Below are positions 3,006-51,586 of a DNA stretch of 64,000 nucleotides, in pieces (within the stretch, counting starts at the first letter, position 1; every line of letters starts with the position of its first letter). The notes beneath the pieces are model-generated. The model did no database searches and was not told where the DNA came from. It saw only the letters and a list, made by a program, of their open reading frames with translations. Source of the DNA: Verrucomicrobiia bacterium (GTDB lineage Bacteria; Verrucomicrobiota; Verrucomicrobiia; Limisphaerales; JADLHS01). A program made the position numbers and the translations under genes. The stretch is from NCBI GenBank assembly GCA_026125285.1, contig JAHCLO010000023.1, positions 41,855 through 105,854 of the forward strand, given 5' to 3'.

Positions 3006-3668
3006 TCAGTCGCCGCCCACGTCCTGACGCCATTCGGGATAAATGTCCTCGGGCAGTTGCCCGCGGCGAATCAAGTCTTGCAGGTCGCGAATGATGGTCT
3101 TGCGCGAGACATTGAAATCGCGCGAAAGACCGGAGACGTTCGGTCGCTCGGTTGTGCCGCGCAGGCGTTTGATCATTTCGTGCTGGCGCGCGAGGCGTTC
3201 CGTGAAGCGGCGGTCGGGTTCTGACGATTCAATCTTCTCAGCCCGTTCCAGCGATTGGAGGAGGGCCACGGTTTCCCCGAGGCCACATTCGGTGAGGGCG
3301 ATCTCCACGGTTCGGTCGAGTTCGTCCAGGTCCACGGGTTTTTCCAAAATGTAATGCGCCGAGCGTGGACCTTGCAGCGCGGCGAGTTTCTCGCGGATTT
3401 GCAGCGTGCCAGAAATCATGATGACGGGCACGTGCGCGGCAACGGCCTTGAGCTTGGGCAGGAATTCCAAACCCTTCTCGCCTTCGTCCAGGATGTTGTC
3501 GAGGATGATGAGGTCGGGCTTGGTGTCGGCAATGGATTCGAGGGCCGCACGGCCCGTGGAGACGCAGGTGAGGCGATAACCGCGCAACGCCTTGCCGTAG
3601 AGCTTGAGCTGCTTCGGATCGTCTTCGACAATCAATATCGAGGCCATGGTTTCTTCAGTTGCCGTCAT
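3006..3668 (-). CDS. response regulator: REC domain plus C-terminal helix-turn-helix
   Basis: Receiver motifs ILIVEDD, DLIILDNIL and VPVIMISG. C-terminal HTH-like segment NVSGLSRDFNVSRKTIIRDLQDLIRRGQL. Starts 10 nt downstream of the kinase stop. Confidence 0.85.
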   Translation of the reverse strand: MTATEETMASILIVEDDPKQLKLYGKALRGYRLTCVSTGRAALESIADTKPDLIILDNILDEGEKGLEFLPKLKAVAAHVPVIMISGTLQIREKLAALQGPRSAHYILEKPVDLDELDRTVEIALTECGLGETVALLQSLERAEKIESSEPDRRFTERLARQHEMIKRLRGTTERPNVSGLSRDFNVSRKTIIRDLQDLIRRGQLPEDIYPEWRQDVGGD

Positions 3669-3678
3669 CCGGGCGAGT

Positions 3679-6600
3679 TTAGGGTGAATTCCGGGTTTGG
3701 GAACTGTGCGTCTCGCGCACAGGGGACAGTCCGGCAGCCACGGGAATGACGAGTGTGAACGTTGCCCCTTTGCCCGCTTCGCTTTCCACGCTCAAACCCA
3801 AGCCGTCCTGCTGGGCAATCGAGTAAACCAGGGACAAACCCAGCCCGGTGCCCGCCTTCGCACTCGTGCGCTTGGTGGTGAAAAAGGGTTCAAATAAACG
3901 CGCCTGCACTTCCGGCGCGATGCCCGGCCCGGAATCCACCACGGTCATTTCGACAAACTGCGACGCTTCGACGGGGCGCAACGCATAGGGCTTGGCGGCA
4001 GGACGCGTGCGGGTGTGAACCGTTATTCTCAGTCTGCCCCTGCCCTGCATGGCTTCGGAGGCGTTCACCACCAGATTTAAGAGCACCTGCTCCAATCGGC
4101 CCCGACCGACATTCACCGACGGCGCCTCGCGATCCAGTTCCAGGGTCAGGGCGATGCCGCTCAGGAATTCCTTGCTCAACAGCGAAACCGTTTCCTCCAC
4201 CACCGCGCTCACGTCGGTGGGTTCGGCAGCGGCGGATATGGATTCATTTCGAGCATAACCCAGCATCGAGCTGACGACGCTCTTGCCCTGCATGACCGCC
4301 TGTTCGATATCGGCGACGTTTTCCTGGATGTCCGGCTGATGGCGGGTTTCGCGCCCAATGAGTTTGTTCGACATGCGGATGACGGACAGCAGATTGTTGA
4401 AGTCATGGGCAATGCCGGTGGCGAGTGTGCCCAGCGCCTGCATCTTTTGGCTGTGCATCAACTCGACCTTGGCCACTTCGAGCTCGCGATTGCGTTGCGC
4501 GGCGCGGCGTTCCGCCGCAAGAAAACCCACGATGGCCGCGCGATGCCGCCGAAGCGTGAGCAGCGCGAAGGCGGACGCCAACCCGAATCCCGCCAGACTG
4601 ATGAACAACGTGGCTTGCATGGGGGTCACGCCAGCGGGGAGCGATGCAACATCGTCGCGGATGGAGGGAATTCCATTCCAATCGAGTCCGATCAAGGCGA
4701 GCTGCTGTCTCGCCCGATCCATGTGCCACACCTGTAATTTGTCTGTCGCACTCGCGGTCACGATCACCGATGCATCCAGCGCCATGCGGACACTGCTGAC
4801 GCTCTGTGGTTGGGGTGCGATCAAATTGGCATACACCTCGTCGGTGAGGGTGGCACGCAATTGCGCCTGCTGGCGGGTGCGGGTGACCACCATGTCGCTG
4901 CCATCCCCCAGGAACGCCAACGAGCCGTGGGTGATGGCGGGTTCATCGCGGGCAATCTTTTGGAGTTGATTCCAGTCGCCCACCGACCAGATGGCGGACG
5001 CCGCCGTTCCCGCCGTCCCCAGCAGCCGGCCATCTGCGCTGAAGGCAACGACCGAGCTCGGAGCATTAAGCGTGATGATCTTCTCCCCGGTGCGTGCGTC
5101 CCAGACTTTGGGGTGATCTCCTTCCCCCACACCGAAACCGGTGACCACCCATCGGCCATCGGGGCTGATGGCAAATCGCCCCGCACCGGTGGGACTGGCC
5201 GGACTGCGCAAGCTGGCAAAGCGGCACTTTTCCCCAAGGAACACCGGGGCCTCCTCAGTCGTAAGGTTGAGCACCACCAACCGCGCATCCGTCAACTCGA
5301 CCACGGCATGATGTCCGGCAAGGCTGATGGCCAGTGCCCGCGCGCCGCGTTCCTCGGGCAGGGGAATCCGTCGGAGGTCCGCCGGATTAAGAGTAGGTGG
5401 AAGGGAATGTCCATCGAACGGCCAGACCTCCAGCCCGCTACGGCGGCATAGGTAGAGTGAACGTTCATCCGGGGCCATGCGCGCGGAAACCAAATCTTCC
5501 ACCGCCACGAACACTTCCGCCTCCTTGCTCGCCAGGTCCCAGAGCCGGAACCCCTTGCTCTGCGTGGCCAGACACCAGCGGCCACTGGGCGAAAGGTCCA
5601 CGGACAGGAACGCCCCGTCAGCCTTGGGACAAACCAACTGGCGATAAATCTCACTGCGCGACAACCGCCAGACCCCGAAGCCAACAGAAGGCCGCCAGAA
5701 ACCAATCCGCTCGCCGTCATTCGAGAAAATGTGTCCGACCCCCTCGTGCGCTGACACAATGGTCTGGCCAAGGGCCGCGTCCCAGAGCCGGGTCGTGCCA
5801 TCTCGCGAACCGGAGAAGAGAAACGCGCCGTCCGGACTAAAACCCAGCCGAACGCAGGGCTCGCTGTGGCCGCGGAGAATGCGTTGCGCGCTGCGACGGA
5901 CGCTCCAGAGATAGACATCGCCATCCTCTGTCGCCACTGCAAGTTGACTGCCATCCGGTGACCACGCCATGGTGAACACGCGGGTGGTGGTTTCCAGGGT
6001 GGCGAGTTTCCGGCTTTCGGGATAGGCGTACAAATCCACCGACGCATCCGTGGCCACGGCCACTTCCATTGTGCCCGGTCGAAAGCGAAAGGTTCGCGCG
6101 CCAACCCGGATGGCGCGATGCAAGATTTCCCAGGAGTCGAAATCGAACAATGCAATCTGGCCGTTGGCGTCCGCGTCACCAAAGCTTAACCGGTTCGCAT
6201 CCGGCCAAAACGACATTCCGGCGATGACGAGGTTCGTGGCATTGACTCCGCTGGCCAGCAGACGCGCGCCGGTGGCCACGTCCCACACCACCATGGCCCC
6301 ACCCTCAAAACGGGCCGCCAGTTTTCGGCCCTCCGGGTCGAACGCCACACTGCGCACCGGCATTCGTGTGCCGGGACCGAGTTCCTGCGCCGCAAAGGTC
6401 CGGTGCGTGATGCCGTCTGTCAGCCGGCCGATGAAAACGTTGCCCTGGGAATCTCCGTGAGCGAAATAGGTGAGTGTGGCATCCATTTCCACCTGGACGG
6501 TGTCGCGCGGGGCAGGCCGGACATCGCCTACAATATCAATGTCCGAAAGCGCCAGGGCGGCGATGGCTTCCGTGCGCAATCCGGGAGAGGTTTGAATGGC

Positions 6601-6909
6601 CGCCGCGTTGCTGATGACCGTGAGCGCGTGCTGACGACGCCCCGCTTCGGGGGTCAACCGTACGGATCGCGCCTGCGCCGCGTAAGCGTGCCACAAACGT
6701 TCGCGAGCTGCCGTCTCCGCGGTTTCGGCACGATGCAGGTTCCGTGCGGCCCGCAGGCTGGCGAGCACCGCGGCCAATGCGAGCGCCAGCACCATCACCA
6801 GAATAATCGCAATGGCCGTGCTGGTGCGTTGAATGTCGCGGCGACTCGTCGCCCGCACCGTTTCGAGATCGCTGGGGGCTTGGAAATGTGGTTCTGGAGT
6901 GTCGGTCAC
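3679..6909 (-). CDS. sensor histidine kinase with a very large extracytoplasmic WD40/beta-propeller region
   Basis: TM1 is IAIILVMVLALALAAVLA. About 650 aa carry recurring WD40/TolB-like motifs (FDPEGRKLA, WSPDGSQLAVATEDGDVYLWS, FSPDGAFLFSGSRDGTTRLWD, ISPDGRWVVTG). TM2 is LFISLAGFGLASAFALLTL. Then come the H-box GIAHDFNNLLSVI and the ATPase boxes LLNLVVNASEAM, DSGPGI and GTGLGLS. Confidence 0.9.
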   Translation of the reverse strand: MTDTPEPHFQAPSDLETVRATSRRDIQRTSTAIAIILVMVLALALAAVLASLRAARNLHRAETAETAARERLWHAYAAQARSVRLTPEAGRRQHALTVISNAAAIQTSPGLRTEAIAALALSDIDIVGDVRPAPRDTVQVEMDATLTYFAHGDSQGNVFIGRLTDGITHRTFAAQELGPGTRMPVRSVAFDPEGRKLAARFEGGAMVVWDVATGARLLASGVNATNLVIAGMSFWPDANRLSFGDADANGQIALFDFDSWEILHRAIRVGARTFRFRPGTMEVAVATDASVDLYAYPESRKLATLETTTRVFTMAWSPDGSQLAVATEDGDVYLWSVRRSAQRILRGHSEPCVRLGFSPDGAFLFSGSRDGTTRLWDAALGQTIVSAHEGVGHIFSNDGERIGFWRPSVGFGVWRLSRSEIYRQLVCPKADGAFLSVDLSPSGRWCLATQSKGFRLWDLASKEAEVFVAVEDLVSARMAPDERSLYLCRRSGLEVWPFDGHSLPPTLNPADLRRIPLPEERGARALAISLAGHHAVVELTDARLVVLNLTTEEAPVFLGEKCRFASLRSPASPTGAGRFAISPDGRWVVTGFGVGEGDHPKVWDARTGEKIITLNAPSSVVAFSADGRLLGTAGTAASAIWSVGDWNQLQKIARDEPAITHGSLAFLGDGSDMVVTRTRQQAQLRATLTDEVYANLIAPQPQSVSSVRMALDASVIVTASATDKLQVWHMDRARQQLALIGLDWNGIPSIRDDVASLPAGVTPMQATLFISLAGFGLASAFALLTLRRHRAAIVGFLAAERRAAQRNRELEVAKVELMHSQKMQALGTLATGIAHDFNNLLSVIRMSNKLIGRETRHQPDIQENVADIEQAVMQGKSVVSSMLGYARNESISAAAEPTDVSAVVEETVSLLSKEFLSGIALTLELDREAPSVNVGRGRLEQVLLNLVVNASEAMQGRGRLRITVHTRTRPAAKPYALRPVEASQFVEMTVVDSGPGIAPEVQARLFEPFFTTKRTSAKAGTGLGLSLVYSIAQQDGLGLSVESEAGKGATFTLVIPVAAGLSPVRETHSSQTRNSP

Positions 6910-6983: not shown

Positions 6984-7535
6984 TTACGTGCGCCCAAGTC
7001 TCGTAAGTCGTTTCTCCGCACCAAGGAAATCCGCCACCGCACAAAGTCTCGTGTAGTACTCCTCTTCCATCATCCCGAGCAGCGTGGCGCCGTAGGCGAG
7101 GCAGTGATCGTCGGTGATGATGTCACCGTAGTTGAGGAGCGGGATCATGTAGGCGACGGCGAGCGGGAGGAGGTCGGGCCGGTCGCGCAGCAGGGGGCGA
7201 AGGTAGAGGACCCGGCCATCCTGCTCGGGGTTGCGCCAGTCCAGGTCCGGTTGCGCGAACTGGTGCATGGCCATCTCACCGAACTCGAAGACGAGTCGCA
7301 CGGGATGGCGGAGACAATCCGGGTCGTGCAACAGGGCATCAAGTTTGTCGGCGGTAAGCGGGCCGTGCTTCTGATGGGCGACAATCGCTTGGGCCACGAG
7401 ATGTTCGCGCAGGCTTTGCTGGCCGAGGTGTTCCAGTTCGGCAGAATTGAGTTTTCGCAACTCAACGGCGTGAGTGCTGGTCGTCATGCGTTTACAACTC
7501 TTCAATCTTTTTGCATCTGGGTCGCTCGTCTTCAC
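6984..7535 (-). CDS. hypothetical protein, first gene of the kinase cluster
   Basis: 183-aa ORF, same strand, ending 74 nt upstream of the kinase start. Composition is non-repetitive and coding-like (..LVFEFGEMAMHQFAQPDLDWRNPEQDGRVLYLRPLLRDRPDLLPLAVAYMIPLLNYGD..). Alternative start ATG 7487. No family recognised. Confidence 0.55.
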   Translation of the reverse strand: MKTSDPDAKRLKSCKRMTTSTHAVELRKLNSAELEHLGQQSLREHLVAQAIVAHQKHGPLTADKLDALLHDPDCLRHPVRLVFEFGEMAMHQFAQPDLDWRNPEQDGRVLYLRPLLRDRPDLLPLAVAYMIPLLNYGDIITDDHCLAYGATLLGMMEEEYYTRLCAVADFLGAEKRLTRLGRT

Positions 7536-7630
7536 CTCACCGCACCGGTTTAGCTTTTACCCACCAAATCCCGGAGCGGCTGGCCTCCCGAACAAAAAGC
7601 ATTGGCAATGACATTAGCTCGGACGGCAAT

Positions 7631-7670
7631 TCTCCCTCTCCCAGCGGGAGAGGGCCGGGGTGAGGGAGAG
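7631..7670. repeat. end-fragment of the CCCTCACCCCGGCCCTCTCCC palindromic repeat family, reverse orientation
   Basis: 7646-7666, GGGAGAGGGCCGGGGTGAGGG, is the exact reverse complement of the left terminal repeat of the 151-bp units at 11465 and 11657. It contains the small hairpin CTCTCCC-AGC-GGGAGAG. Degenerate relatives lie at 7859-7875 and 7965-7990. Confidence 0.75.
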
Positions 7671-7737
7671 TTGGCGGTGAAGCTCATTGCTACCATGGCA
7701 CATTCACCTTAACCCTCCCCATGAACCCTCGACCGGA

Positions 7738-7801
7738 GCGCGGGTCTGTGACCCGCAACGGTCTCGGCCAGTCCAGCGCGCTGCGGGTCACAGACCCGCG
7801 C
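7738..7801. repeat. perfect 20-bp-stem hairpin, REP-like, possible terminator downstream of the nap cluster
   Basis: GCGCGGGTCTGTGACCCGCA (7738-7757) and TGCGGGTCACAGACCCGCGC (7782-7801) are exact reverse complements separated by a 24-nt loop. Confidence 0.8.
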
Positions 7802-8044
7802 TCCGACCGCGCCCTCCGGTTCAGGGGTTCAAGGCGCGAGATTTCATCTGGGAGAAATCTCTCCCTGAGGGAGAGGGAATGGTCATCACCTGATTTGCTT
7901 TTGCCATAGCATTGCTGAACCGACTCCGTCGCAGGTTTTCCACAGCGTCGGCGAACGATTATCCCCCTCCCGCGGGGAGAAGGAGAACGCCGACGGATGA
8001 TCTCCAAGTTTTTCACCGTTTGTGCGTGATGTCTTGTCATGGCA

Positions 8045-8677
8045 TCACAATTCCCCTCTCAGTTCCTCCCACGGCAGCGGGCGGTCGTAGTTTTTCGATG
8101 CGTCGGGGACATGGCACTGCTGGCATTGGCTGCGCCAGGGATGCGGGGTGGCGATGCGCTGCTTGCCGGTCGGGCCGTGGCAGGAGAGGCAGTTATCGCG
8201 CATGAAGGTCTTGTGCGGGATGGTCGGCGGCGCGAGGGGATGGGCGCGCGTGCCTTTGCCCGGGAAATCCAGCCCCAGAAAATCGCTGGCGCGAAACAGG
8301 CCAACGGTCTTGTCCGAACCATTGACGTGGCATTGCTGGCATTGGGAGTACTCGGCGTGCGGTACGGGCGCGATGGCTTGCTGGCGCTTTTCGATGCGCG
8401 TCTCCCGGGCGTGACATTCGAGGCAATAACGCCCGTCGCGATCCCCGGCAAAGGTGTGCGGCATGACGGGCGGCGCGCCCAGGAACGCGCGGTCAGCGGT
8501 GATGTTTGTGCCGAGGACGTCCGGGCGGATGGGTTGGGCGAAGGAACGGGGCTGAGGGTAAACTTGGCCCGTGTTCCTGGTGATGATGGGGGAATCAGCG
8601 GCGAGCAAGAACGACGCGATGCCCGCAGCCCCGAGCAATCCAAGAATCCAGAATCGGTGGATCGCTTTCCCCCTCAC
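8045..8677 (-). CDS. napB: tetraheme cytochrome c made of two tandem NapB-like diheme units
   Basis: Four CxxCH motifs (CLECH, CQQCH, CLSCH, CQQCH) form two NapB-style units: APPVMPH..CLECH..PH..CQQCHV and APPTIPH..CLSCH..PH..CQQCHVPD. N-terminal anchor RGKAIHRFWILGLLGAAGIASFLLAA from GTG 8677. The track ORF reaches 8962, but that extension crosses palindromic repeats. Confidence 0.75.
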   Translation of the reverse strand: MRGKAIHRFWILGLLGAAGIASFLLAADSPIITRNTGQVYPQPRSFAQPIRPDVLGTNITADRAFLGAPPVMPHTFAGDRDGRYCLECHARETRIEKRQQAIAPVPHAEYSQCQQCHVNGSDKTVGLFRASDFLGLDFPGKGTRAHPLAPPTIPHKTFMRDNCLSCHGPTGKQRIATPHPWRSQCQQCHVPDASKNYDRPLPWEELRGEL

Positions 8678-8741
8678 CCAGACCCTCTCTCCCGGGGAAA
8701 CAATTCCCCGAACCAGAGTTCGCGCTTTGACCCCCTGGACT

Positions 8742-8813
8742 GTAGCAGCCGACGTGAGTCGGCTCTGACTTCTCCCCGTTCGCGGATGGAGCGGACTCAC
8801 GTCCGCTGCCACA
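8742..8813. repeat. imperfect inverted repeat pair in the napA-napB spacer
   Basis: GTAGCAGCCGACGTGAGTCGGCTCTGAC (8742-8769) and GAGCGGACTCACGTCCGCTGCCAC (8790-8813). Each arm holds its own small hairpin (CCGAC-GTGA-GTCGG; GCGGAC-TCAC-GTCCGC). The arms are near reverse complements of each other. Confidence 0.7.
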
Positions 8814-8948: not shown

Positions 8949-11303
8949 TCACACCTTCGCAATGCCCACGGCGCATTTCTTGTAGTCCGGTTCCTTGGAC
9001 AACGGGCAATGCGCTTCGAGCGTGACCAGGTTGATCAGCGCTTCCTCGGCGAAGAACGGCACGAACACCGAGCCGCGCGCGGGAATCGAGCGGCCATTGA
9101 TCCAGGCGGGCAACAGGATTTCGCCCCGACGCGATTTGATGCGGACCTGGTCGCCGGTGGCGATGCGCATTTCGGCGGCATCCATGGGATTCAACTCGAC
9201 GTAAGCGCGCGGCATGGCGCGGTGCAACTGGGGCACGCGGCGGGTCATCGTGCCGGTGTGCCAGTGCTCGAGCACGCGCCCGGTGCAGAGCCAGAACGGA
9301 TAGGTCTTGTCCGGCACCTCGGGCGGCGCTTCGTAGGGCCGCGCCCAGACGAGCGCCTTGCCGTCCTTGAGTTTGCCCCAATAAAAATCCACCCCGCTGC
9401 CGGGCTTCACGAACGGGTCTTCGCCCTCGACGAAGCGCCGCGCCGTCTCGCGCCACGCGCCGTTCTGTTCCTGCACCACCGGCCAGCGCATCCCGCGCGC
9501 CTTGACCAGTTCGTCGTACGGCGCGAGCGCGTACTTCTTCATCATCGTGAAGGGGCGGTATTCATCGAAAAGCAACTTGTCCGCGTTGTGCGCTTTGAAC
9601 ACGTCCCACTTCCACAACTCCAGCGGCTGGCCGTCCGCGCCTTTATAGCTGAAGATAAATTCGCCGTTCTGGTTCTTCATGCCGGGATGGCCCAGTTCGA
9701 AACATTTTCGCGCGGCGGCGATGACCTGCCAGACGTCGTCGCGGGCGTCGCCGGGCGGCTCGACCATTTTGAACCATTGTTGGGTGCGGCGTTCGCTGTT
9801 GCCGAACATGCCGTTCTTTTCGATCCACATCGCGCTGGGCAGAACCACCGTGGCCAGGTCGGTGGTGGCGGTGGGATAAACATCCGAGACGACGAGGAAC
9901 CGCTCGCGCAGTTTGCTGGTGAGCCGGTTCAAGTTGGGCATGGTCTGGCCGGGGTTCGTGACTTGAACCCAGCAACCGGTAAGTTCGCCGCTTTGCAGCG
10001 CCTCGAACATCGCGACCGCGTGATGGCCGGGTTTGGCGTTGATGCGGCCGGCCGGGAGATTCCACAGTTCCTCACATTCCTTGCGATGCTCGGCGTTGGC
10101 CACGAGGCGACCACCGGGCAGCGCGTGGCCGAGCGTGCCGACTTCGCGACAGGTGCCGCATGCGCTCGGCTGGCCGGTGAGCGAAAACGCGGTGCTGCCG
10201 GGCTTGCCGAATTTGCCGCTCAGGAAATGGACGTTATAGACCAGGTTGTTGATCCACGTGCCGCGCGTGTGCTGGTTCATGCCCATGCACCAGAGCGAAA
10301 CGATCTTGCGGTTCGGGTCGGCAAAGCGGTCGGCAAGCAACTGCAACTGCGCGGGGCGCACGCCGGCCACCTTCCGCACGAATTCGGGCGTGTAGGTTTC
10401 GAGCCATTTGGCGTATTCCTCAAAGGTCATGGCTTCGCCCTCGGCATCGCCGCCCTTGCGGAAGTTGCAGTGTTTCGTCACCCAATCCTTGTCGTATTTG
10501 CCCGACTTGATCAGCAGGTGGCAGATGCCGTTGGCGATGGCAAGGTCGCCCTGCGGCGTGAACGCGATGTAATGGTCCGCCTCCTCGGTGCTGCGCGTCC
10601 GGCGCGTGCCCAGGTCAATCACCTCGACCTTCTGCCCTTTGGCGCGGCGATCAATGATGCGCGACCAGAGGACCGGATGCATCTCGGCGGGATTGTTGCC
10701 CCAGAGAATGATCGTGTCCGCCAGATCGAAGTCGTCGTAGCAACCGCTGGGTTCGTCCACGCCGTAAGTGGTGGTCATGCCGACGACGGCGCTGGCCATG
10801 CAGAGGCGGGCGTTGGGGTCCACGTGATTGTTGCCCAGACCGCCCTTCATGAACTTCATCACCACGCAGCCTTCGGGAATGGTCCATTGGCCCGAGCCAT
10901 AGATGCTGAACGTGCCCGGGCTGCGCACAATCTCCTTGGCGATCAACTCGATGGCTTCGTCCCAGGTGGCGGGCGTGAGCTTGCCGCTCTTGCGGATCAG
11001 CGGGGTGGTGAGCCGGTCTTTGCCATAGAGCGCAACGCCGGCGTGATAGCCCTTCACGCAGAGCAATCCGCGATTGACGGGGTTTTCGAGATCGCCCTGA
11101 ACGGCGACGACGCGGCCGTCCTTGACGCCGACCATCACGCCGCAGCCGGTGCCGCAGAAGCGGCAGGGTGCTTTCTGCCAGGTGAGACCGTCCGCGCCCT
11201 GGGCAGTGGCGGCAAACATTTGGCGGGGGATCGTGCCCGCGAGAACACTCGAAGCGAACGCGAGCGCGGCTTGTTTGAGGAAGTCACGACGGTTGGTTTG
11301 CAT
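8949..11303 (-). CDS. napA: periplasmic nitrate reductase catalytic subunit NapA (molybdopterin, 4Fe-4S)
   Basis: Twin-arginine signal MQTNRRDFLKQAALAF. N-terminal cluster motif KAPCRFCGTGCGVMVGVKDGRVVAVQGD..PVNRGLLCVKGY is collinear with NapA. About 785 aa. Start set at ATG 11303; the track ORF start at 11471 runs through repeats. Confidence 0.95.
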   Translation of the reverse strand: MQTNRRDFLKQAALAFASSVLAGTIPRQMFAATAQGADGLTWQKAPCRFCGTGCGVMVGVKDGRVVAVQGDLENPVNRGLLCVKGYHAGVALYGKDRLTTPLIRKSGKLTPATWDEAIELIAKEIVRSPGTFSIYGSGQWTIPEGCVVMKFMKGGLGNNHVDPNARLCMASAVVGMTTTYGVDEPSGCYDDFDLADTIILWGNNPAEMHPVLWSRIIDRRAKGQKVEVIDLGTRRTRSTEEADHYIAFTPQGDLAIANGICHLLIKSGKYDKDWVTKHCNFRKGGDAEGEAMTFEEYAKWLETYTPEFVRKVAGVRPAQLQLLADRFADPNRKIVSLWCMGMNQHTRGTWINNLVYNVHFLSGKFGKPGSTAFSLTGQPSACGTCREVGTLGHALPGGRLVANAEHRKECEELWNLPAGRINAKPGHHAVAMFEALQSGELTGCWVQVTNPGQTMPNLNRLTSKLRERFLVVSDVYPTATTDLATVVLPSAMWIEKNGMFGNSERRTQQWFKMVEPPGDARDDVWQVIAAARKCFELGHPGMKNQNGEFIFSYKGADGQPLELWKWDVFKAHNADKLLFDEYRPFTMMKKYALAPYDELVKARGMRWPVVQEQNGAWRETARRFVEGEDPFVKPGSGVDFYWGKLKDGKALVWARPYEAPPEVPDKTYPFWLCTGRVLEHWHTGTMTRRVPQLHRAMPRAYVELNPMDAAEMRIATGDQVRIKSRRGEILLPAWINGRSIPARGSVFVPFFAEEALINLVTLEAHCPLSKEPDYKKCAVGIAKV

Positions 11304-11464
11304 AGGCGAACGAAGGGTGATTACGAAAGAGTTGGAGATGTTTGGTGCGGCGAGTGTGGGTGATAACGCGTCCGTGTGTTGGCTTTTTGTTGCCAAACCA
11401 ATGATGAAAATGACGACGGGACGATGGACGTAACTCGACCTCATCACAAAAGCCCTGGGACTCT

Positions 11465-11615
11465 CCCTCACCCCGGCCCTCTCCCGCTGGGAGAGGGGGA
11501 ATCATCCGCCGGGCCAATTGAAGTCGTGAGTCTGTTGGCGTTTCGGCTCGCAGACGATTACAGCAAAGAATCGCCTGCTGTTCCCTCTCCCTCAGGGAGA
11601 GGGTCAGGGTGAGGG
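11465..11615. repeat. 151-bp MITE-like palindromic element, copy A
   Basis: Left end CCCTCACCCCGGCCCTCTCCC (11465-11485). Right end GGGAGAGGGTCAGGGTGAGGG (11595-11615), whose reverse complement matches the left end at 19 of 21 positions. Each end also forms a small CTCTCCC/GGGAGAG hairpin. Confidence 0.8.
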
Positions 11616-11656
11616 TGAGCGCAACCGGAGCTTGAGCGGACTTGGCGACACGTTCT

Positions 11657-11807
11657 CCCTCACCCCGGCCCTCTCCCGCTGGGAGAGGGGGGATCATCCG
11701 CCGCCGATTTGAAATGTCGTGTGACGGGCGCAGCCGGCGGTTCATCCGCCAATCTGAAACCGAACGATAGCCGTTCCCTCTCCCGGGGGAGAGGATCAGG
11801 GTGAGGG
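11657..11807. repeat. 151-bp MITE-like palindromic element, copy B
   Basis: Same terminal sequences as copy A (11657-11677 and 11787-11807) and the same 151-bp length. The interior has diverged. It lies 41 bp from copy A. Confidence 0.8.
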
Positions 11808-11822
11808 CGGGCGCGAGGACAT

Positions 11823-12095
11823 TCATGCCGTGCGGAAGCTGTTGGGCAGCGGCGCAGCTTCATCCGCCACGTCCTCGAAGTTGTGATAAACGAGCACGGC
11901 GGATTTCACGCCGGGCACATTCTGCAATTGCGCGCCCAACTCCTCTGCGGCGCGGGTGGTGGGCGTGTCCGCTACGGCGGGAATGCCGGCGACCATCGGC
12001 TCACCGAGCTCGACGCCAGGCAGCGCCCGCAGTCGGTCCTGCACGGCGGGTTGATCCACCAGCGCGCAGCGGATGACGTAGGAGGAGATGGGCAT
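11823..12095 (-). CDS. napD: NapD-like chaperone for NapA
   Basis: 90 aa with the NapD pattern: ISS-V start, LRALPGVEL, GVKSAVLVYHNFED. Located between the octaheme gene (8-nt gap) and napA. Confidence 0.75.
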   Translation of the reverse strand: MPISSYVIRCALVDQPAVQDRLRALPGVELGEPMVAGIPAVADTPTTRAAEELGAQLQNVPGVKSAVLVYHNFEDVADEAAPLPNSFRTA

Positions 12096-12103
12096 GGTTC
12101 AAC

Positions 12104-13546
12104 TCATTTGGCGTAGCGTTTCTGGAATTCCTTGAGTTGCTGTTCGCGGCGGGCCTTTTCCTCGGGGTCCATCTTGCCGAGATACCACTTGTGATTGTCG
12201 TGGTTCAGCGTGTCTTCGATGAGCTTGTTCAACGCCTCCGCTTGCTGCTTCTTTTCCGGGTCGGTCGAGTTGATGTTCTTCTCCACCAATTCCTGCAACT
12301 CGGGGATGTATTTCGAGTAGAAATGTTTTGCGACCTCGTAGGTGCCGTGCCAGTGCGTGTAGTCCGGGCCCATCATCGAAGCGCCGTGCCGGGCGCGGCG
12401 GCCTTCGTGATGCCAGATTTCATACCAGGTGAAGTCCACCTTGTTGGCGAACTGCGGGCGCGGGAGCAGCGGCCTGGCGGCCTTGTAAAGCGCCAACCCG
12501 GGCTCGGCGAACTTGCCGTGGTAGAGGTCAATGAGCGCGTCATACTGCTGATAGAACGCGCCGACATAGTTCGCGTTGTGACAATTGATGCAGACGTTCT
12601 GCATGTTGGCACGGCGTTTTTCCCAGGAGATATTCGCGCCGGGCAAACCGAGTTTGGCGTCGCCGACCTCCGGACGGATGGAGAGTTCCGGGCGGTTGTT
12701 CCAGGAGATGCGCATGCCGACGTCGTGCGTGACCGGTTGGTCCTTGGTGGCGCTCATGTGGCAGGTGGCGCAGGTGGGCGCGGCGCTGTAATCCTCGCCG
12801 ACGATCCATTTGGGATTGTCGAGGTTCATCCGGGCGATGTTGGCATAGTAGGCGATGCCATGTTTGGATTCGTTGTAGATTTCGATCTGCGGATGGTCTG
12901 GTCCCATGTGGCACTTGCCGCAGGTGTCGGGTGTGCGGGCCTGCGCGGCACTGAACGAATGGCGCGAGTGGCAGGCGGTGCAGGAGCCTTCGCTGCCGTC
13001 GGGGTTGATGCGGCCGATGCCGGTGTTCGGCCAGGTGGCGGGATCCAGCCGGCCGGTGGGCAGCACTTTCACCTCCGAGCCATGACATTGCCAGCAGCCG
13101 TTGACGGCCGCGGCGCTGACCCCGTGGGGGAACGCCGTGGTCTTGAAAGCCCGGTTGCCCTCGACCACCTCGGCCAGCGTGTTGTCGAGCGACCCCAGGA
13201 TGCGTGCGCCCTTGGCGTGGTGCGAGTCATTGAACTCCTGCACCTCGCGTTCATGGCAGCGGGCGCAGTCCCTGGGTGAAGCGATGGTCGAGATGAACTG
13301 GCCGTAATGCTCGTAGGCGTCGCTGTCGGTCTGGTTGGCCATGTGACATTCGTAACAACCGACGTTGGCGCGGAAGTGTTTGGACGAACCCCACTGTTCG
13401 TAGATGGCCGCGCTCTCCTTCTTGTGGCAGGCCACACAAGCGGTGCTTTGCGGCGACATTTCCTTGAGGGTGAAACCGGCGAAGGCCAGCGGCGCGGCCA
13501 GCAGCACGGCGAGGGTCGGTGCGAGTTTCATGGTGGTTGTAGGCAT
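12104..13546 (-). CDS. octaheme cytochrome c of the hydroxylamine oxidoreductase (HAO) family
   Basis: Eight CxxCH motifs (CVACH, CYECH, CARCH, CWQCH, CTACH, CGKCH, CATCH, CINCH). CTACHSRHSFSAAQARTPDTCGKCHMGPDHPQIEIYNESKHG and APTCATCHM parallel HAO as I remember it ([51 protein letters not shown]). Signal peptide from ATG 13546 (MPTTTMKLAPTLAVLLAAPLAFAG). The track ORF start at 13810 crosses a repeat. Confidence 0.85.
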   Translation of the reverse strand: MPTTTMKLAPTLAVLLAAPLAFAGFTLKEMSPQSTACVACHKKESAAIYEQWGSSKHFRANVGCYECHMANQTDSDAYEHYGQFISTIASPRDCARCHEREVQEFNDSHHAKGARILGSLDNTLAEVVEGNRAFKTTAFPHGVSAAAVNGCWQCHGSEVKVLPTGRLDPATWPNTGIGRINPDGSEGSCTACHSRHSFSAAQARTPDTCGKCHMGPDHPQIEIYNESKHGIAYYANIARMNLDNPKWIVGEDYSAAPTCATCHMSATKDQPVTHDVGMRISWNNRPELSIRPEVGDAKLGLPGANISWEKRRANMQNVCINCHNANYVGAFYQQYDALIDLYHGKFAEPGLALYKAARPLLPRPQFANKVDFTWYEIWHHEGRRARHGASMMGPDYTHWHGTYEVAKHFYSKYIPELQELVEKNINSTDPEKKQQAEALNKLIEDTLNHDNHKWYLGKMDPEEKARREQQLKEFQKRYAK

Positions 13547-13563: not shown

Positions 13564-13690
13564 GAATCCGAAATCCGAAATCCGAATCCCGAAGGAATCC
13601 CGAAATCCGAAAACCGAACACACGGATACGTTTTCCGCTTCGGCATTCGGGCTTCGGATTTCTTTCGGATTTCGTCATTCGGATTTCAGG
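13564..13690. repeat. long imperfect inverted repeat built from CCGAAATCCGAA / TTCGGATTTCGG units
   Basis: Left arm GAATCCGAAATCCGAAATCCGAATCCCGAAGGAATCCCGAAATCCGAAAACCGAA. Right arm TTCGGCATTCGGGCTTCGGATTTCTTTCGGATTTCGTCATTCGGATTTCAGG. It fills the gap between the NrfD-like stop (13693) and the octaheme start (13546). Confidence 0.75.
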
Positions 13691-13692
13691 TT

Positions 13693-14919
13693 TCAATTTG
13701 GTTGAGCGGAGAGTTCGGGTTTGTCGCGCAATGAACCGTTCATGATGGGAATCGCCACGTGCAGCATCCACGAGAACATCAACAGGCCGAACGCCCAGAT
13801 GCCGAGGCACACGAGCGTTTCGTTGAGCGTGGGCAGGTATTCCACAATCTGCCCGAGCGGCGAGGGCACAAAGCCGGGGATGATCAGTCCCATGCCCTTC
13901 TCAATCCAGATGCCGACGAAGCAGGTCAGGCACGCGAGGTTGAGCCAGCCGATCTTCCGGCTCAACGGCGTGATCAGCAACGTGAGCCCGATGGCGTTCA
14001 ACGTGATCGCGGTCCAGATCCACGGCACCAGTCCGCTGTGTCCGTGCAGGCCAAAGTACAGATAGTGCGCCGCCGCCGTGTGCTGCGTCGGAGAGTAGAA
14101 CTCGGTGAAGACCTCGCAACCGAGCAGGAACATGTTGATGATCATCGCCACGGTCATGATCATGCGCAGGGTGAAGATGGGTTGATCACCGATGAAATAA
14201 TTCGTCGTGCGGCGGATGATCTGAAACGTGAGAATCATCAGCGCCGGTCCGGCCACAAACGCCGACGCCAGGAAGCGCGAGGGCACGAGCGGATTGTGCC
14301 AGTAACCGCGCCCCGCGAGCCCGACGTAGAGAAACGCCGTGACGGTGTGAATGCTGACGGCCCACGCGATCGAGAGGAACACAAACGGGATGTAAAACCT
14401 CTTCGTCGGCTTCTGATGCCGGTAACGGCAGTAAAGCAGGTAGCCGGCGATGTGCAGGTTCAACAGCAGGTAGCCGTTCAACACAATCACGTCCCAGGAG
14501 AGAATCGAGCCGGGGAAATTGAAGATGCCGAACGGCGGGATCATGTGATGGAAACGGTCGGGCCGCCCGAGGTCCACGGTGACAAACAGCAGGCACATGA
14601 CGATGACGGCGATGGCGAGCAGTTCGCCAAACAACACGACCTCGTGCATGTGCTCCTTCTTGTAGATGTAGGCCGGGATGACGAGCATCACCGCCGCCGC
14701 CGCCACACCGACGAGGAAGGTGAAGTTGGCGATGTAAGCGCCCCAGCTTACCTGATTGGTCATGCCGGTGGTTTGCAGCCCGTCCACAAACTGCCGCGCC
14801 CAGGCGTGCAACCCGACGAGGGCCACGACAGTGAGCAAGGTCATCCAGGCGTAAAACATCCAACTCCCCTGAAACGAAAGCCGCCAGACGCGGAACAGGA
14901 ATGTCAGGTAGGCTTTCAC
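13693..14919 (-). CDS. NrfD/PsrC-family polytopic membrane subunit (quinol-interacting)
   Basis: Polytopic membrane protein with an NrfD-family N-terminal signature: GLQTTGMTNQVSWGAYIANFTFLVGVAAAAVMLVIPAYIY. It follows an NrfC-like FeS gene. Start chosen at GTG 14919 (alternative ATG 14859). The track ORF start at 15033 lies inside a repeat. Confidence 0.85.
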   Translation of the reverse strand: MKAYLTFLFRVWRLSFQGSWMFYAWMTLLTVVALVGLHAWARQFVDGLQTTGMTNQVSWGAYIANFTFLVGVAAAAVMLVIPAYIYKKEHMHEVVLFGELLAIAVIVMCLLFVTVDLGRPDRFHHMIPPFGIFNFPGSILSWDVIVLNGYLLLNLHIAGYLLYCRYRHQKPTKRFYIPFVFLSIAWAVSIHTVTAFLYVGLAGRGYWHNPLVPSRFLASAFVAGPALMILTFQIIRRTTNYFIGDQPIFTLRMIMTVAMIINMFLLGCEVFTEFYSPTQHTAAAHYLYFGLHGHSGLVPWIWTAITLNAIGLTLLITPLSRKIGWLNLACLTCFVGIWIEKGMGLIIPGFVPSPLGQIVEYLPTLNETLVCLGIWAFGLLMFSWMLHVAIPIMNGSLRDKPELSAQPN

Positions 14920-14927
14920 GTGAAGGT

Positions 14928-15043
14928 GTAGCGCAGACTGGCAGTCTGCCGTATCGCGGATTGGCAATCCGCGGCCATCCCAATTCTCGAGCGTCCTGCC
15001 GACTGCCAGTCGGCGGACACAGCAGATTGACAATCTGCGCTAC
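14928..15043. repeat. 116-bp MITE-like element bounded by GTAGCGCAG / CTGCGCTAC
   Basis: Ends GTAGCGCAG (14928-14936) and CTGCGCTAC (15035-15043) are reverse complements. Internal mini-hairpins: CAGACTG-G-CAGTCTG, GCGGATTG-G-CAATCCGC, CAGATTG-A-CAATCTG. Same architecture as 51587-51719. Confidence 0.8.
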
Positions 15044-15082
15044 AAGCTTGCGCACGCGCCGTGGGTTGATCGTTGTTCCAAT

Positions 15083-16057
15083 TCATTTGTCGAAGAAGTA
15101 GTAGAAGCGCGGCTGCGTGCCGACGTCTTCCTTGAGGATGTAAACGCGCTTGTTTTTCAGGATGTAGTTAATCTCGCTGTTGGGATCGAGCAGGTTGCCG
15201 AACACGCGCGCGCCGGTCGGGCACACTTCCAGGCAGGCAGGGTATTTGCCATCGCGGGTGCGATGGAGGCAAAACGTGCATTTCTCCACCACGCCCTTGG
15301 GCCGGATGCGATTGCTCAGGTAGGTCTGGTTTGGGTTGATCTGCTCCTTCGCGATCGTGGGCTTCTGGTAATTGAACCGGCGGGCGTCGTAAGGACACGC
15401 GGCCATGCAGTAACGACAGCCGATGCACCAGTTGTAATCCACCACCACGATGCCGTCCTGCTCCTGCCACGTCGCCTGCACGGGACAAACCTTGGTGCAG
15501 GGCGCCTGCCGGCACTGATGGCATTGCACCGGCATGTAATACTTGTCCGGCTGCGGGACGGTCTCCGGGTTGTAATAAACGTTCGAGGTTTCGAGGTTGA
15601 TCGCGCCCTTGTCGAGTTCGAGCACGCGAATGTAGGACATTTCGATGTCGTCGGGATTCGCGCGTGATTGATTGTTCTCCGCGAGACAGGCGTGGGCGCA
15701 TTTGCGGCAGCCGATGCAACGGGTGAGATTCAGCGCGTAACCAAACTCTACGCCATCGAGCGGCTGAAGGTCGCGCAGGGTGGGCTGAACGCCGTATTCC
15801 TTCCCGGCTTTGGCAGCGAGGTTGTCCATGATGCGCCGCAGGTCTTCGGGGGTGAGTTGGCGGTAATGCTTTTGCAGCAACTCATCCAGCGAGATCGCGC
15901 CACGCTCCAGTTCGAGCAGCGGCTTGAGCGCCGCCATCAAACCCGCCACGCCCACCATCGAAGCCGCGGCGCCTTTCAAGAACGTCCGGCGCGTCATCGG
16001 CCGATAGACCTGCTCAATGGTCCTGGGACTGACTTCGTTCTGTGGTTCTGGAGTCAT
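15083..16057 (-). CDS. TAT-exported 4Fe-4S ferredoxin-type subunit (NrfC/PsrB/DmsB-like)
   Basis: Twin-arginine motif MTRRTFLKGAAASMVG. Four Cys clusters: CIGCRKCAHAC, CHQCRQAPCTKVCP, CIGCRYCMAACP, CTFCLHR...CLEVCP. Its start overlaps the upstream stop as ATGA at 16054-16057. Alternative start ATG 15997. Confidence 0.9.
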   Translation of the reverse strand: MTPEPQNEVSPRTIEQVYRPMTRRTFLKGAAASMVGVAGLMAALKPLLELERGAISLDELLQKHYRQLTPEDLRRIMDNLAAKAGKEYGVQPTLRDLQPLDGVEFGYALNLTRCIGCRKCAHACLAENNQSRANPDDIEMSYIRVLELDKGAINLETSNVYYNPETVPQPDKYYMPVQCHQCRQAPCTKVCPVQATWQEQDGIVVVDYNWCIGCRYCMAACPYDARRFNYQKPTIAKEQINPNQTYLSNRIRPKGVVEKCTFCLHRTRDGKYPACLEVCPTGARVFGNLLDPNSEINYILKNKRVYILKEDVGTQPRFYYFFDK

Positions 16058-16767
16058 GGGGCGTGAAGCGCGTGAGCCGCATCCGCGCCGGCCGCTCGTG
16101 CCGGATAGGTGAGCGGCGGCAGTGGTTTCATAGCCTGGAACCTGGGACTGTGCGGATCATGGCATTGGATGCACCGGAGCTTGGTTTTGTCGCCTTTGGT
16201 TTCATCCCAGTGCCCGTTCTGGCGGCCATGGACGCCGGCATTCCAATCCCGATAAGTCGTCCCATGGCACTTGGCGCAAAGCTGCACCACGTTCGCCTGG
16301 GCGATCTCCGCGCCGTCGTAATCCACCCACGCGTTGCGATTCGTGGGATGATGGCAGTTGAGGCAGAAACGATTGTTCCCATGATCGAGCCGGATGTCCT
16401 TGTGCTCCACCATGGGCCGGTCGTAATGCCAGCGCGGTTTGAGCAGCGTGTGGCACTCCATGCAATTGTAGGTCCAACCCAGCTTGACCAAGTCGAGGCC
16501 CTTCGTTGCGCGCGGCGGGGTTTTGTCGAGGTGCGTGTCGGAAGCCAGCCCAACGGGCGGCTGCTCGGCGGGAGGTTTGGCGACGATGGGGAGCGTCGTG
16601 GGCGGCAATACCTGCCCGCGTGTCGGGACCACAGCCTCGTTTGCAATGCCGGAACGCCACCATCCGCCGAGGATGGCTATGACTGCGACCACCAGCGCTA
16701 AACGAACTACCTGTCTGGCAACTCGATTCATAAGGCCCGTTACGGTCCTGAGTCTAGTTGGCCGCAA
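16054..16767 (-). CDS. membrane-anchored tetraheme cytochrome c
   Basis: N-terminal TM VVRLALVVAVIAILGGWW, a Pro-rich linker, then four CxxCH motifs (CMECH, CLNCH, CAKCH, CIQCHDPH). First gene of the cluster. Alternative start ATG 16731. Confidence 0.8.
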   Translation of the reverse strand: MRPTRLRTVTGLMNRVARQVVRLALVVAVIAILGGWWRSGIANEAVVPTRGQVLPPTTLPIVAKPPAEQPPVGLASDTHLDKTPPRATKGLDLVKLGWTYNCMECHTLLKPRWHYDRPMVEHKDIRLDHGNNRFCLNCHHPTNRNAWVDYDGAEIAQANVVQLCAKCHGTTYRDWNAGVHGRQNGHWDETKGDKTKLRCIQCHDPHSPRFQAMKPLPPLTYPARAAGADAAHALHAP

Positions 16768-16935: not shown

Positions 16936-18396
16936 ATGCAGGAGTATCCCAAACATTATTGCGGTGTGTTCGGCGTGTTCGGTCATCCGAACGCGGCGGA
17001 ATTAACGTATTACGGACTGTTTGCGCTGCAACACCGAGGGCAGGAGAGCGCCGGCATCGTCACCAGTGATGGCCGCCAATTTCACAAGCACGTCGGCATG
17101 GGGCTGGTGTCGCAGGTCTTCGACGGCGACATCCTTCACAACCTCGTCGGGCATATCGCCGTTGGGCACACGCGTTATTCGACCACGGGATCATCGCATT
17201 TGCGCAACGCCCAGCCGTTGACGGCGGATTGCAGGCGCGGCCAGATCGCCGTGGCGCACAATGGCAATCTGACCAACGCCAACCAGTTGCGCGAAAGTCT
17301 CGAAGCGCGCGGCTCGATTTTTCAAACCTCGGTGGACAGCGAGATTATCGTGCATCTGCTGGCCCAGCCCAGCGTCGGCAACGGCACCAATCATCTGGTC
17401 AATGCCATTCACCGTCTCGAAGGCGCCTATTCCCTCGTCATCATGACCGAGCACGAATTGGTCGGCGTGCGGGATCCGCACGGCTTCCGTCCACTTTGTC
17501 TTGGCAAGCTGGGCGACGGCTGGGTGCTCGCCAGCGAAACCTGTGCGTTGGATTTGATCCATGCCAAGTTTGTCCGCGACGTTGAACCGGGCGAGATCAT
17601 CATCATCAACAAGGATGGACTTACGAGCCTCAAGCCGTTTCCCGATCACGCACAGCGGGCGTTCTGCATTTTTGAGTACGTGTATTTTGCGCGCCCGGAC
17701 AGCCATTTGGCGAATCAGAATGTTTACCGAGTGCGGGTGGAGATGGGCCGCCAACTTGCGCGGGAGCATCTGGTCGCTGCCGACCTCGTGGTCCCCGTGC
17801 CCGACAGCGGCAACTGCGCGGCACTGGGTTATTCCTTGGAGTCGGGCATTCCCTTTGAGATGGCCTTTGTGCGCAATCATTACATCGGCCGCAGCTTCCT
17901 TCAGCCGACCCAGCTCATCCGAGATTTCAACGTGCGCGTGAAGTTGAATCTCATCGGCGAACTGGTGCGGGGCAAGCGCGTGGTGGTGGTGGATGATTCC
18001 ATCGTGCGCGGGACGACGTGCAAGGCGCGCGTGAACAATCTCAAAGAAGCCGGCGCGAGGGAGGTCCACGTCATGGTGAGCTGCCCGCCGCACATGCATC
18101 CGTGCGTGTATGGCATTGATTTTCCCGATCGCAACAAATTAATGGCGGCCAATCATTCCCTGGATGAAATCCGCAAGTACCTCAACGCGGATTCACTGCA
18201 CTATCTTTCCCAGGATGGAATGATCCGCGCGACCGGCCAACCTCGGGACGGGTTTTGCATGGCGTGTTACGACGGTAAATACCCCGTGCCGTACGATCCC
18301 GCTGTCAGCAAGCACATCATCGAGCGCCGCAATGGCCGCGTCATGGGCTTGAGCGACGCCATAGTGGCCGAGCGTGCGCAGATCCCGCTAATTTAA
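16936..18396 (+). CDS. purF: amidophosphoribosyltransferase
   Basis: A short propeptide is followed by the catalytic Cys: MQEYPKHYCGVFGVFGHPNAAELTYYGLFALQHRGQESAGIV. PRTase motif VVVVDDSIVRGTT. C-terminal Cys ligands are present. The track ORF begins at TTG 16915. Confidence 0.95.
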   Translation: MQEYPKHYCGVFGVFGHPNAAELTYYGLFALQHRGQESAGIVTSDGRQFHKHVGMGLVSQVFDGDILHNLVGHIAVGHTRYSTTGSSHLRNAQPLTADCRRGQIAVAHNGNLTNANQLRESLEARGSIFQTSVDSEIIVHLLAQPSVGNGTNHLVNAIHRLEGAYSLVIMTEHELVGVRDPHGFRPLCLGKLGDGWVLASETCALDLIHAKFVRDVEPGEIIIINKDGLTSLKPFPDHAQRAFCIFEYVYFARPDSHLANQNVYRVRVEMGRQLAREHLVAADLVVPVPDSGNCAALGYSLESGIPFEMAFVRNHYIGRSFLQPTQLIRDFNVRVKLNLIGELVRGKRVVVVDDSIVRGTTCKARVNNLKEAGAREVHVMVSCPPHMHPCVYGIDFPDRNKLMAANHSLDEIRKYLNADSLHYLSQDGMIRATGQPRDGFCMACYDGKYPVPYDPAVSKHIIERRNGRVMGLSDAIVAERAQIPLI

Positions 18397-18469
18397 TGCG
18401 TGATGCGTGATGCGTGAAATCGGAGGTTGCCGACCGCAGGTCACGTTTCACGCATCACGCATCACGCAT
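18396..18469. terminator. perfect 24-bp-stem hairpin directly after the purF stop (REP-like, possible terminator)
   Basis: ATGCGTGATGCGTGATGCGTGAAA (18396-18419) pairs with TTTCACGCATCACGCATCACGCAT (18446-18469) across a 26-nt loop. It overlaps the last base of the TAA stop. There is no U-tract, so terminator function is inferred only. Confidence 0.5.
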
Positions 18470-18516
18470 CACCTCCAGACTGGCGCAGTCTCCGACCGCC
18501 CGTTATTCTCCCACCC

Positions 18517-32209: not shown

Positions 32210-32288
32210 GGTAGGGCGCGTCACTCCGTGCGCGCCGGTGGGAAAGCCAGGAGTCGGTGGCGGCGCGCACGGAGTGACGCGCCCTACC
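32210..32288. terminator. perfect 27-bp-stem hairpin 28 nt after the decarboxylase stop (REP-like, possible terminator)
   Basis: GGTAGGGCGCGTCACTCCGTGCGCGCC (32210-32236) and GGCGCGCACGGAGTGACGCGCCCTACC (32262-32288) are exact reverse complements across a 25-nt loop. Confidence 0.5.
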
Positions 32289-51552: not shown

Positions 51553-51586
51553 ATTGCGATGGATGCAGGACGAGCCTCCTCGGTTT

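Follow-up and report, generated by a model that had tools for sequence, protein, structure and literature searches.

Hairpin repeats of the BoxC type and of other families between the cistrons of a verrucomicrobial nap operon

The nap operon and the napD-napA spacer

The DNA considered here is a stretch of 64,000 nucleotides (nt) from contig JAHCLO010000023.1 of a Verrucomicrobiia bacterium, referred to below as the window. Its minus strand carries, between positions 6984 and 16767, an eight-gene nap cluster delimited with Pfam and a gene model (Table 1), and the subject of this report is the spacer that separates two of its genes, napD and napA. As a preliminary description had stated, this spacer is 519 nt long and holds two 151-nt units with inverted ends; the tight junctions that it had given, an ATGA overlap between the cytochrome c and 4Fe-4S (FeS) genes and an 8-nt gap between the multihaem (HAO-like) cytochrome gene and napD, are also as described. 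The other five junctions of the operon are expanded. Both genes that border the spacer are intact: N-terminal alignment gives NapA the same start, MQTNRR, as in two related operons (L003 and L127), and NapD ends in a C-terminal tail (…DEAAPLPNSFRTA) that exceeds those of the closest relatives in length.

The two units share one architecture, in which inverted modules of about 33-45 nt, of the form CCCTCACCC-N3-CCCTCTCCC-N3-GGGAGAGGG, enclose a core, and in both of them terminal inverted arms of about 37 nt are 81-84% complementary. They had been described as two elements of equal length, and the length does hold at 151 nt each. As copies of each other they do not stand: identity between the units is 98% over the leftmost 50 nt and 85% over the rightmost 46 nt, whereas the 65-nt cores agree at 53.5%, the level of shuffled sequence (0.49 +/- 0.03). 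Across the units, direct repeats with a 192-nt period comprise a 50-nt block of 98% and a 28-nt block of 89% identity. The central pair of modules, 11583-11689 (107 nt), has the 'tails-in' orientation of E. coli pairs, and the 151-nt parse is 'tails-out'. Folded as RNA, the whole spacer reaches -238 kcal/mol (z = -6.4), unit 1 -88.6 kcal/mol (z = -8.7) and unit 2 -85.4 kcal/mol (z = -5.5). Between unit 1 and the start codon of napA lies a non-repetitive segment, for which BLAST against all fetched loci and the window returned no match beyond itself, and which has no counterpart in the relatives, where the napD-napA junctions all measure at most 26 nt; it may conceivably supply a new promoter or ribosome-binding region.

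A stop-free open reading frame (ORF) of 180 codons, 11284-11826 on the minus strand, runs through both units; its start codon and the stop codon of napD overlap as ATGA, and its end lies 17 nt past the napA ATG. As a sign of preserved translational coupling this frame is not significant, a given frame being open in 6% and any frame in 16% of dinucleotide-preserving shuffles, and it is probably spurious, of the kind that such repeats generate. Recognising these spacers is useful for annotation because they give rise to ORFs of this sort. Scans for sigma-70 promoters and intrinsic terminators across the operon gave sites no commoner than in shuffles and none on the coding strand of the spacer, and Rfam covariance models at gathering score had 0 matches in the whole window.

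Table 1. Genes, gaps and repeat elements of the nap operon, with further copies of one repeat family in the window
Feature	Position	Strand	Length	Basis or remark
Cytochrome c gene	16054-16767	-		Pfam
4Fe-4S protein gene (NrfC-like)	15083-16057	-		Pfam
FeS/NrfD gap			163 nt	
GTAG-headed four-hairpin element, REPIN/BIME-like, FeS/NrfD gap	14927-15044			GTAG...CTAC ends, GTAGCGCAG...CTGCGCTAC
NrfD-like membrane protein gene	13693-14919	-		Pfam
NrfD/multihaem gap			161 nt	
Long hairpin, CCGAAAT-type heptamer repeats, NrfD/multihaem gap	13565-13694			RNA fold -64.8 kcal/mol, z = -5.7
Multihaem cytochrome gene (Multi-haem_cyto/HAO-like, ~480 aa)	12104-13531	-		Pfam
napD, intact	11823-12095	-		Pfam NapD, alignment
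napD/napA gap (intercistronic spacer)	11304-11822		519 nt	Gene calls; absent in 7/7 orthologous operons
Unit 2, architecture and length of unit 1, core unrelated	11657-11807		151 nt	Right end 15 nt from napD stop codon
End module, slightly degenerate (GGGAGAGGA)	11776-11807	-		
End module identical to 11465-11497	11657-11689	+		
Unit 1, BoxC-type inverted doublet	11465-11615		151 nt	Left CGG-type module, 85-nt core, right TCA/TGA-type module
End module, TGA spacers; plus strand reads GGGAGAGGG-TCA-GGGTGAGGG	11583-11615	-		G3N3G3N3G3N3G3 tract, seen in sequence
End module CCCTCACCC-CGG-CCCTCTCCC-GCT-GGGAGAGGG	11465-11497	+		Reverse complement is E. coli TM_ECO type B (Table 1, PMC4666352)
Non-repetitive segment adjoining napA start codon	11304-11464		161 nt	BLAST self-match only
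napA, intact	8949-11303	-		Pfam, homologues, N-terminal alignment; starts MQTNRRDFLKQ, a twin-arginine leader
napA/napB gap			310 nt	
Inverted doublet, GTAG and GTGG heads, REPIN-like, napA/napB gap	8741-8813			25-nt arms, 88% complementary
Degenerate half-module of BoxC-type family, then small hairpin, napA/napB gap	8671-8691	+		3 mismatches
NapB-like gene	8045-8638	-		Pfam
napB/downstream-gene gap	7488-8044		557 nt	
27-bp hairpin, napB/downstream-gene gap	7734-7805			96% complementary; RNA fold -70.8 kcal/mol, z = -8.2
Solo BoxC-type module, napB/downstream-gene gap	7634-7666	-		
Small protein gene, eighth in cluster, downstream of NapB-like				Unknown protein
GTAG-headed family, copy 2	40924-41039			Outside operon, between convergent genes
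GTAG-headed family, copy 3	51586-51720			Outside operon

Identity of the end modules

Judged by its sequence, the end module of the two units is not new and is the motif known from E. coli under the names BoxC, PIT and TM_ECO, to which the names of Bachellier and of Hoyne and Maher are reportedly also linked. These names, BoxC, PIT element and TM_ECO intrastrand triplex motif, denote one and the same motif (Holder et al. 2015, PMC4666352), which has additionally been described as a G-quadruplex/hairpin switch, HPG1-HPG2 (Kaplan et al. 2016, PMC5100583). It consists of three blocks over 34-37 nt, in the order CCCTC(T/G)CCC, loop, GGGAGAGGG, loop (TTA or CCG) and GGGTGAGGG (PMC4666352), and the module of the window is the reverse complement of the TM_ECO sequences listed there (Table 1, PMC4666352). 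BLAST with the unit ends gives matches in 4288 of 5426 complete E. coli genomes; identity is about 90%, and the matching sites carry no annotation. An exact pattern with 27 specified bases was found in genome stretches of many phyla, at least 120 in number, and its hosts include Planctomycetota, Pseudomonas, Enterobacteriaceae, Chloroflexota, Myxococcota, Cyanobacteria, Acidobacteriota and Verrucomicrobiota.

Within the 64-kb window, the motif CCCTCACCCCGGCCCTCTCCC (up to 3 mismatches) occurs six times against an expectation of 0.01. There are five BoxC-type modules and one degenerate copy, all of them in gaps between genes supported by Pfam or by codon usage. The BoxC pattern fits the four modules of the spacer and the solo module in the napB/downstream-gene gap, with either CCG (type B) or TCA as the second loop, and each of the two units pairs a CGG-type with a TGA-type module, that is, the two loop-2 types.

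Orthologous operons in related genomes

NapA homologues place the window in Verrucomicrobia, in a Limisphaera/Pedosphaera-like position, the highest identity being 88%. The comparison covered seven orthologous operons that share its gene order (L001, L003, L004, L125-L128), in which napD and napA are spaced by -4, 11, -4, -4, -4, 26 and 20 nt. The empty sites that the preliminary description had proposed to look for in relatives are therefore present in every case, since all seven napD/napA junctions are empty. In L003 and L127 essentially every junction of the operon is tight. Other junctions are occupied elsewhere: the closest relative, L001, carries compact BoxC-type hairpins in its FeS/NrfD and multihaem/napD gaps and an unrelated hairpin in its NrfD/multihaem gap, and the cytochrome c/FeS gap of L125 holds a CCGAAA-type hairpin of the family found in the NrfD/multihaem gap of the window.

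Local alignment of the gaps of the window with those of L001 showed that orthologous junctions are unrelated in content, significant similarity being confined to comparisons across non-orthologous junctions, and a shared ancestry of the gap contents was rejected on this ground. Given these unrelated contents and the empty sites in the relatives, the insertions are independent and lineage-specific. Convergent occupation of the same junctions was also considered and rejected, as the overlap between the expanded junctions of the window and those of L001 (4 of 5) is that of chance (hypergeometric P = 0.52). Taken together, the nap operons of the eight genomes form a series of filled and empty sites, with junctions that range from fully coupled to five expanded gaps.

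Repeats in the other gaps of the operon and beyond

The remaining expanded gaps also contain palindromic elements (Table 1). The inventory of the preliminary description is correct for the gaps that it listed, including the elements of the FeS/NrfD and NrfD/multihaem gaps, and it overlooked the 557-nt gap downstream of the NapB-like gene with its two elements. Its two palindromes in the napA/napB gap fared differently: the doublet at 8741-8813 is borne out, and the tract at 8671-8700 turned out to be no different element, being a degenerate half-module of the BoxC type followed by a small hairpin. In the transcribed sense, the gap elements fold at -47 to -89 kcal/mol each, with z from -5.5 to -8.7 against shuffles; among them, the element of the FeS/NrfD gap reaches -72 kcal/mol (z = -6.9) and the napA/napB doublet -47.2 kcal/mol (z = -6.6). 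The stems of the GTAG-headed family covary among its three copies in the window. Occupied junctions amount to 5 of 7 in the operon and 6 of 30 elsewhere in the window, a post hoc comparison (Fisher p ~0.006-0.018).

Strong hairpin repeats are also found beyond the operon, at 18396-18472, 32210-32288, 40924-41039 and 51586-51720, which indicates a repeat-rich host genome. The first of these is a perfect 24-bp hairpin with GCGTGAT heptamer repeats, located between dprA and a gene for a PurF-like glutamine amidotransferase/phosphoribosyltransferase. The second, flanked by convergent genes, is an inverted repeat of 28 bp without mismatch (GGTAGGGCGCGTCACTCCGTGCGCGCCG). Its initial 20 nt recur at 2335-2354 of L190, a metagenome contig in which a BoxC doublet is also present, and related genomes thus contain both repeat families. 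The third belongs to the family with GTAG/GTGG heads and extends over the predicted 3' end of a DDE_Tnp_1 ORF (39909-40961), which is the second of an insertion-sequence-like ORF pair; pair and adjoining repeat together occupy 39177-41039.

The 151-nt doublet in other genomes

The architecture of the units, at the same length, is also present in a Pedosphaera sp. metagenome-assembled genome (L102) and in L087. A pattern search that required both end types, 95-125 nt apart, matched at least 120 metagenome contigs (L129-L248). Among the matches listed, 151 nt is the modal length, with 26 of 80 core-sequence clusters at exactly this value and 38 of 80 at 150-152 nt. The cores of these metagenome units are nearly random, with a median pairwise identity of 0.50, and show a weak positional consensus, which the units of the window match at 28-32 of 74 positions (shuffles, 18.7 +/- 3.5). 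An apparent 10-nt periodicity of the lengths (141/151/161) was discarded, as the 141 class collapses to one subfamily; this subfamily lies inside a larger repeat with conserved flanks. The idea that the cores form part of a long hairpin was rejected as well, the mean interior fold having z = -0.37, and covariation within the unit gives no signal to read, the ends being invariant and the cores unpaired.

With respect to their context, according to crude ORF calls and among the matches listed, 27 units lie between tandem, 13 between convergent and 2 between divergent genes, at a median distance of about 35 nt past the upstream stop codon. No orientation bias relative to the flanking genes was detected among these units (15 versus 12). 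Both orientations of the module pair are common in other genomes (29 versus 24), as are clusters of two to four alternating modules of the BoxC-type family.

Origin of the spacer and alternative explanations

The napD-napA spacer probably arose by the insertion of two widespread, non-autonomous palindromic repeats, within a wider process in which such repeats entered tolerated gaps repeatedly and independently. Repeated neutral insertion, which had been offered earlier as one possible origin, agrees with the empty napD/napA sites in all seven relatives, the tightness of every junction in some of them (L003, L127), the presence of the same families at other junctions in relatives and the unrelated contents of orthologous gaps. 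In outline, members of the family with BoxC/PIT/TM_ECO ends would have inserted twice between napD and napA, in a host of a Limisphaerales/Pedosphaera-like lineage that carries a heavy load of several hairpin-repeat families, and several of these families would have landed, repeatedly and independently, in the intercistronic junctions of the operon. Insertions at these junctions are tolerated, as no ORF is broken and the sites lie downstream of stop codons. The elements may be selfish DNA whose mode of spread creates no target duplication, and for the operon their effect may be neutral or mild: insertion would remove the translational coupling between napD and napA and add very stable RNA hairpins, which may incidentally slow 3'-to-5' mRNA decay. 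On the whole, the repeats of the operon look like litter in tolerant gaps and not like a conserved regulatory design.

The term 'MITE-like' (for miniature inverted-repeat transposable elements, MITEs), previously applied to the units, is fair in view of the terminal inverted repeats, the variable core and the apparently numerous copies, though neither a target-site duplication nor a cognate transposase was found. No target-site duplication is visible at the two units of the window, and direct repeats of 2-9 nt at any boundary offset revealed none among 113 non-redundant copies beyond subfamily effects. Y1_Tnp/RAYT is absent from the 38 predicted proteins of the window, no polymorphic, that is, recently moved, copy was found, and we know of no parent insertion sequence with BoxC-type unit ends. 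Likewise, no association of BoxC/PIT/TM_ECO with mobile elements has been reported (PMC4666352). A link between the GTAG-headed elements and RAYT found no support: the window contains no Y1_Tnp, none of the loci retrieved has the GTAG pattern, and the Y1_Tnp gene of L127 is accompanied by other repeats. This gene (L127, 8794-9925) encodes a 350-aa IS200/RAYT-like protein immediately downstream of the nap operon, and is bracketed by 35-nt inverted repeats of 97% complementarity (AAGTCAATGGGGTCAGATCTATATCTTTGACAATT) that are unrelated to the repeats of the window.

An alternative that we regard as unlikely is that the elements are co-opted intercistronic RNA elements of the REP/BIME or Correia kind, which would act as barriers to 3'-to-5' exonucleases or as sites for RNase III/E and would thereby cut the nap mRNA into segments of different stability, tuning the stoichiometry of the subunits. 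The strength of the folds in the transcribed sense, the excess of occupied operon junctions and the position of the units shortly past stop codons are all in its favour, together with the precedent of REP sequences, whose influence on the stability of upstream operon mRNA is known (Stern 1988; Higgins 1982; both cited after PMC3184786). However, the same junctions are empty in seven relatives, some of which have every junction tight, the occupied junction and the family in it differ between relatives, and the overlap with L001 is at chance level. A designed role is further argued against by the lack of orientation bias relative to flanking genes and, as far as the earlier work cited by PMC4666352 is reported there, by the lack of promoter or terminator activity of PIT/BoxC in E. 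coli. An RNA-stabilising or processing side-effect is nonetheless plausible, considering the predicted stability of the hairpins and the REP precedents. It is very improbable that a single insertion was followed by a local tandem duplication of 192 nt. Although the direct repeats of that period and the equal length and orientation of the units would fit, a duplication old enough to randomise the cores should also have eroded the ends, unless these were homogenised or selected, and alternating clusters of two to four modules are common in other genomes; a recent duplication of the unit was rejected outright because the core identity is at the shuffled level.

Still more doubtful, and indeed extremely improbable, is an origin in non-B DNA, in which the modules would adopt an intrastrand triplex, G-quadruplex or cruciform, stalling replication or transcription and turning the locus into a rearrangement hotspot, so that the spacers would result from structure-induced instability and not from transposition. 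Each module has the sequence potential for this, containing a G3N3G3N3G3N3G3 tract beside its complement, and the nap operon junctions differ greatly among relatives. In vitro, TM_ECO adopts a stable triplex, and rearrangement among E. coli strains is more frequent at TM loci (PMC4666352); in addition, a switch between G-quadruplex, hairpin and duplex has been proposed for the same motif (PMC5100583). Yet in vivo footprinting in E. coli gave no support for a stable triplex (PMC4666352), and such instability does not account for the de novo appearance, at an empty junction or in 80 or more unrelated contexts, of a 151-nt unit whose ends and register are conserved. Finally, a speculation that is a long shot makes the doublet a distinct, ancient, cross-phylum mobile element with length-fixed ends that is kept at junctions for RNA stability and in a frame that ribosomes can pass. 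If this were true, the triplex- or G-quadruplex-capable ends would need a fixed spacing for mobilisation or for a binding protein, which would hold the 151 nt constant; in repeat-rich Verrucomicrobia, operon junctions would keep BoxC, REPIN-like and heptamer-hairpin families because the hairpins set segment-specific mRNA stability; and the stop-free frame from the napD stop codon to beyond the napA ATG would let ribosomes pass through the insert.

Returning to the insertion of repeats as the favoured origin, several points weigh against it. The 161 nt beside napA are accounted for by no repeat, and the sharp conservation of the 151-nt length, despite nearly random cores, is likewise unaccounted for. 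The excess of occupied junctions in the operon, post hoc as it is, leaves room for selection or targeting. With neither a mobilising enzyme nor a target-site duplication nor a polymorphic copy found, mobility is inferred from distribution only. In addition, an effect on transcript fate is hard to exclude, as the hairpins are predicted to be extremely stable in the mRNA sense.

The series of operons shows hairpin repeats, of the BoxC type and others, entering operon junctions time and again while the genes stay intact. It is also natural material for asking whether such inserts alter operon expression. The BoxC motif and its spread across phyla have already been published, and the length-constrained 151-nt class could help to address the mechanism of this spread.

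Composition of the nap cluster and neighbouring genes

The make-up of the nap cluster is unusual, yet it is conserved in all seven Verrucomicrobia operons compared. Neither in these nor in the window were NapC, NapG or NapH identified by Pfam among the genes of the cluster, and this conserved gene set suggests an NrfCD-type quinol module that feeds NapAB. Just downstream of the cluster, 3679-6909 encodes a 1076-aa protein with WD40 beta-propeller repeats and a histidine-kinase ATPase domain, adjoined by a response regulator gene (3006-3668). Further away, the predicted protein of 56893-58380 matches a DruA (Druantia) domain and a DDE_Tnp_1-associated domain, and its gene is flanked by gaps of 630 and 852 nt without called genes. 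A very large gene (60470-64000) runs past the end of the window; it contains internal DNA repeats of about 820 nt with 76-86% identity, and its product carries DUF4082, Big_5 and CopC domains.

Comparison with known repeat families

The element of the window is a member of the published BoxC family in a new host lineage and in a tails-out 151-nt format. The 151-nt doublet class itself was not found described in the published accounts of the BoxC/PIT/TM_ECO motif (PMC4666352, PMC5100583). In E. coli K-12 the motif has 23 copies, all intergenic (PMC4666352, PMC5100583), among them five inverted pairs that always combine a type A (TTA) with a type B (CCG) module (PMC4666352) and two copies inside operons, in pstA-pstB and yihR-yihS (PMC5100583); the genome of Enterobacter sp. 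638 has 100 copies (PMC2869309). Common to E. coli and the window are the blocks CCCTCTCCC, GGGAGAGGG and GGGTGAGGG with 3-nt loops, and the CCG type of loop 2 is identical to the E. coli type B. Intergenic siting, inverted pairs of two loop types, clusters of two to four and presence inside operons are also shared. In contrast, the pairs of the window are tails-out, with an 85-nt core and a length of 151 nt, whereas those of E. coli are tails-in and span 85-129 nt; the second loop type is TCA in the window and TTA in E. coli type A, and the host of the window belongs to a Verrucomicrobia lineage.

The comparison with REP/BIME elements is apt as a structural analogy, resting on alternating inverted modules of two loop types, GTAG/GTGG heads and stable hairpins. 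Like the RAYT-mobilised REP, BIME and REPIN elements, those of the window are short GC-rich palindromes that pair up as inverted doublets and alternate in orientation within mosaic clusters. Their sites follow stop codons and fall inside operons, and they show no target-site duplication. The resemblance is closest for the gap elements 14927-15044 and 8741-8813, which have GTAG/GTGG heads and the inverted-doublet layout of REPs and REPINs. The BoxC-type units differ in that they lack a GT[AG]G head and their cores lie outside any hairpin, and the window has no RAYT gene. With bacterial MITEs such as Chunjie of Geobacter uraniireducens and Correia/NEMIS of Neisseria, the BoxC-type units share their terminal inverted repeats (about 40 nt), variable core and length of about 150 nt, a probably high copy number and insertion between cistrons that leaves the operon unbroken. 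They are set apart from these by the lack of a detectable target-site duplication and by ends whose conservation extends across phyla, an uncommon trait in a MITE family.

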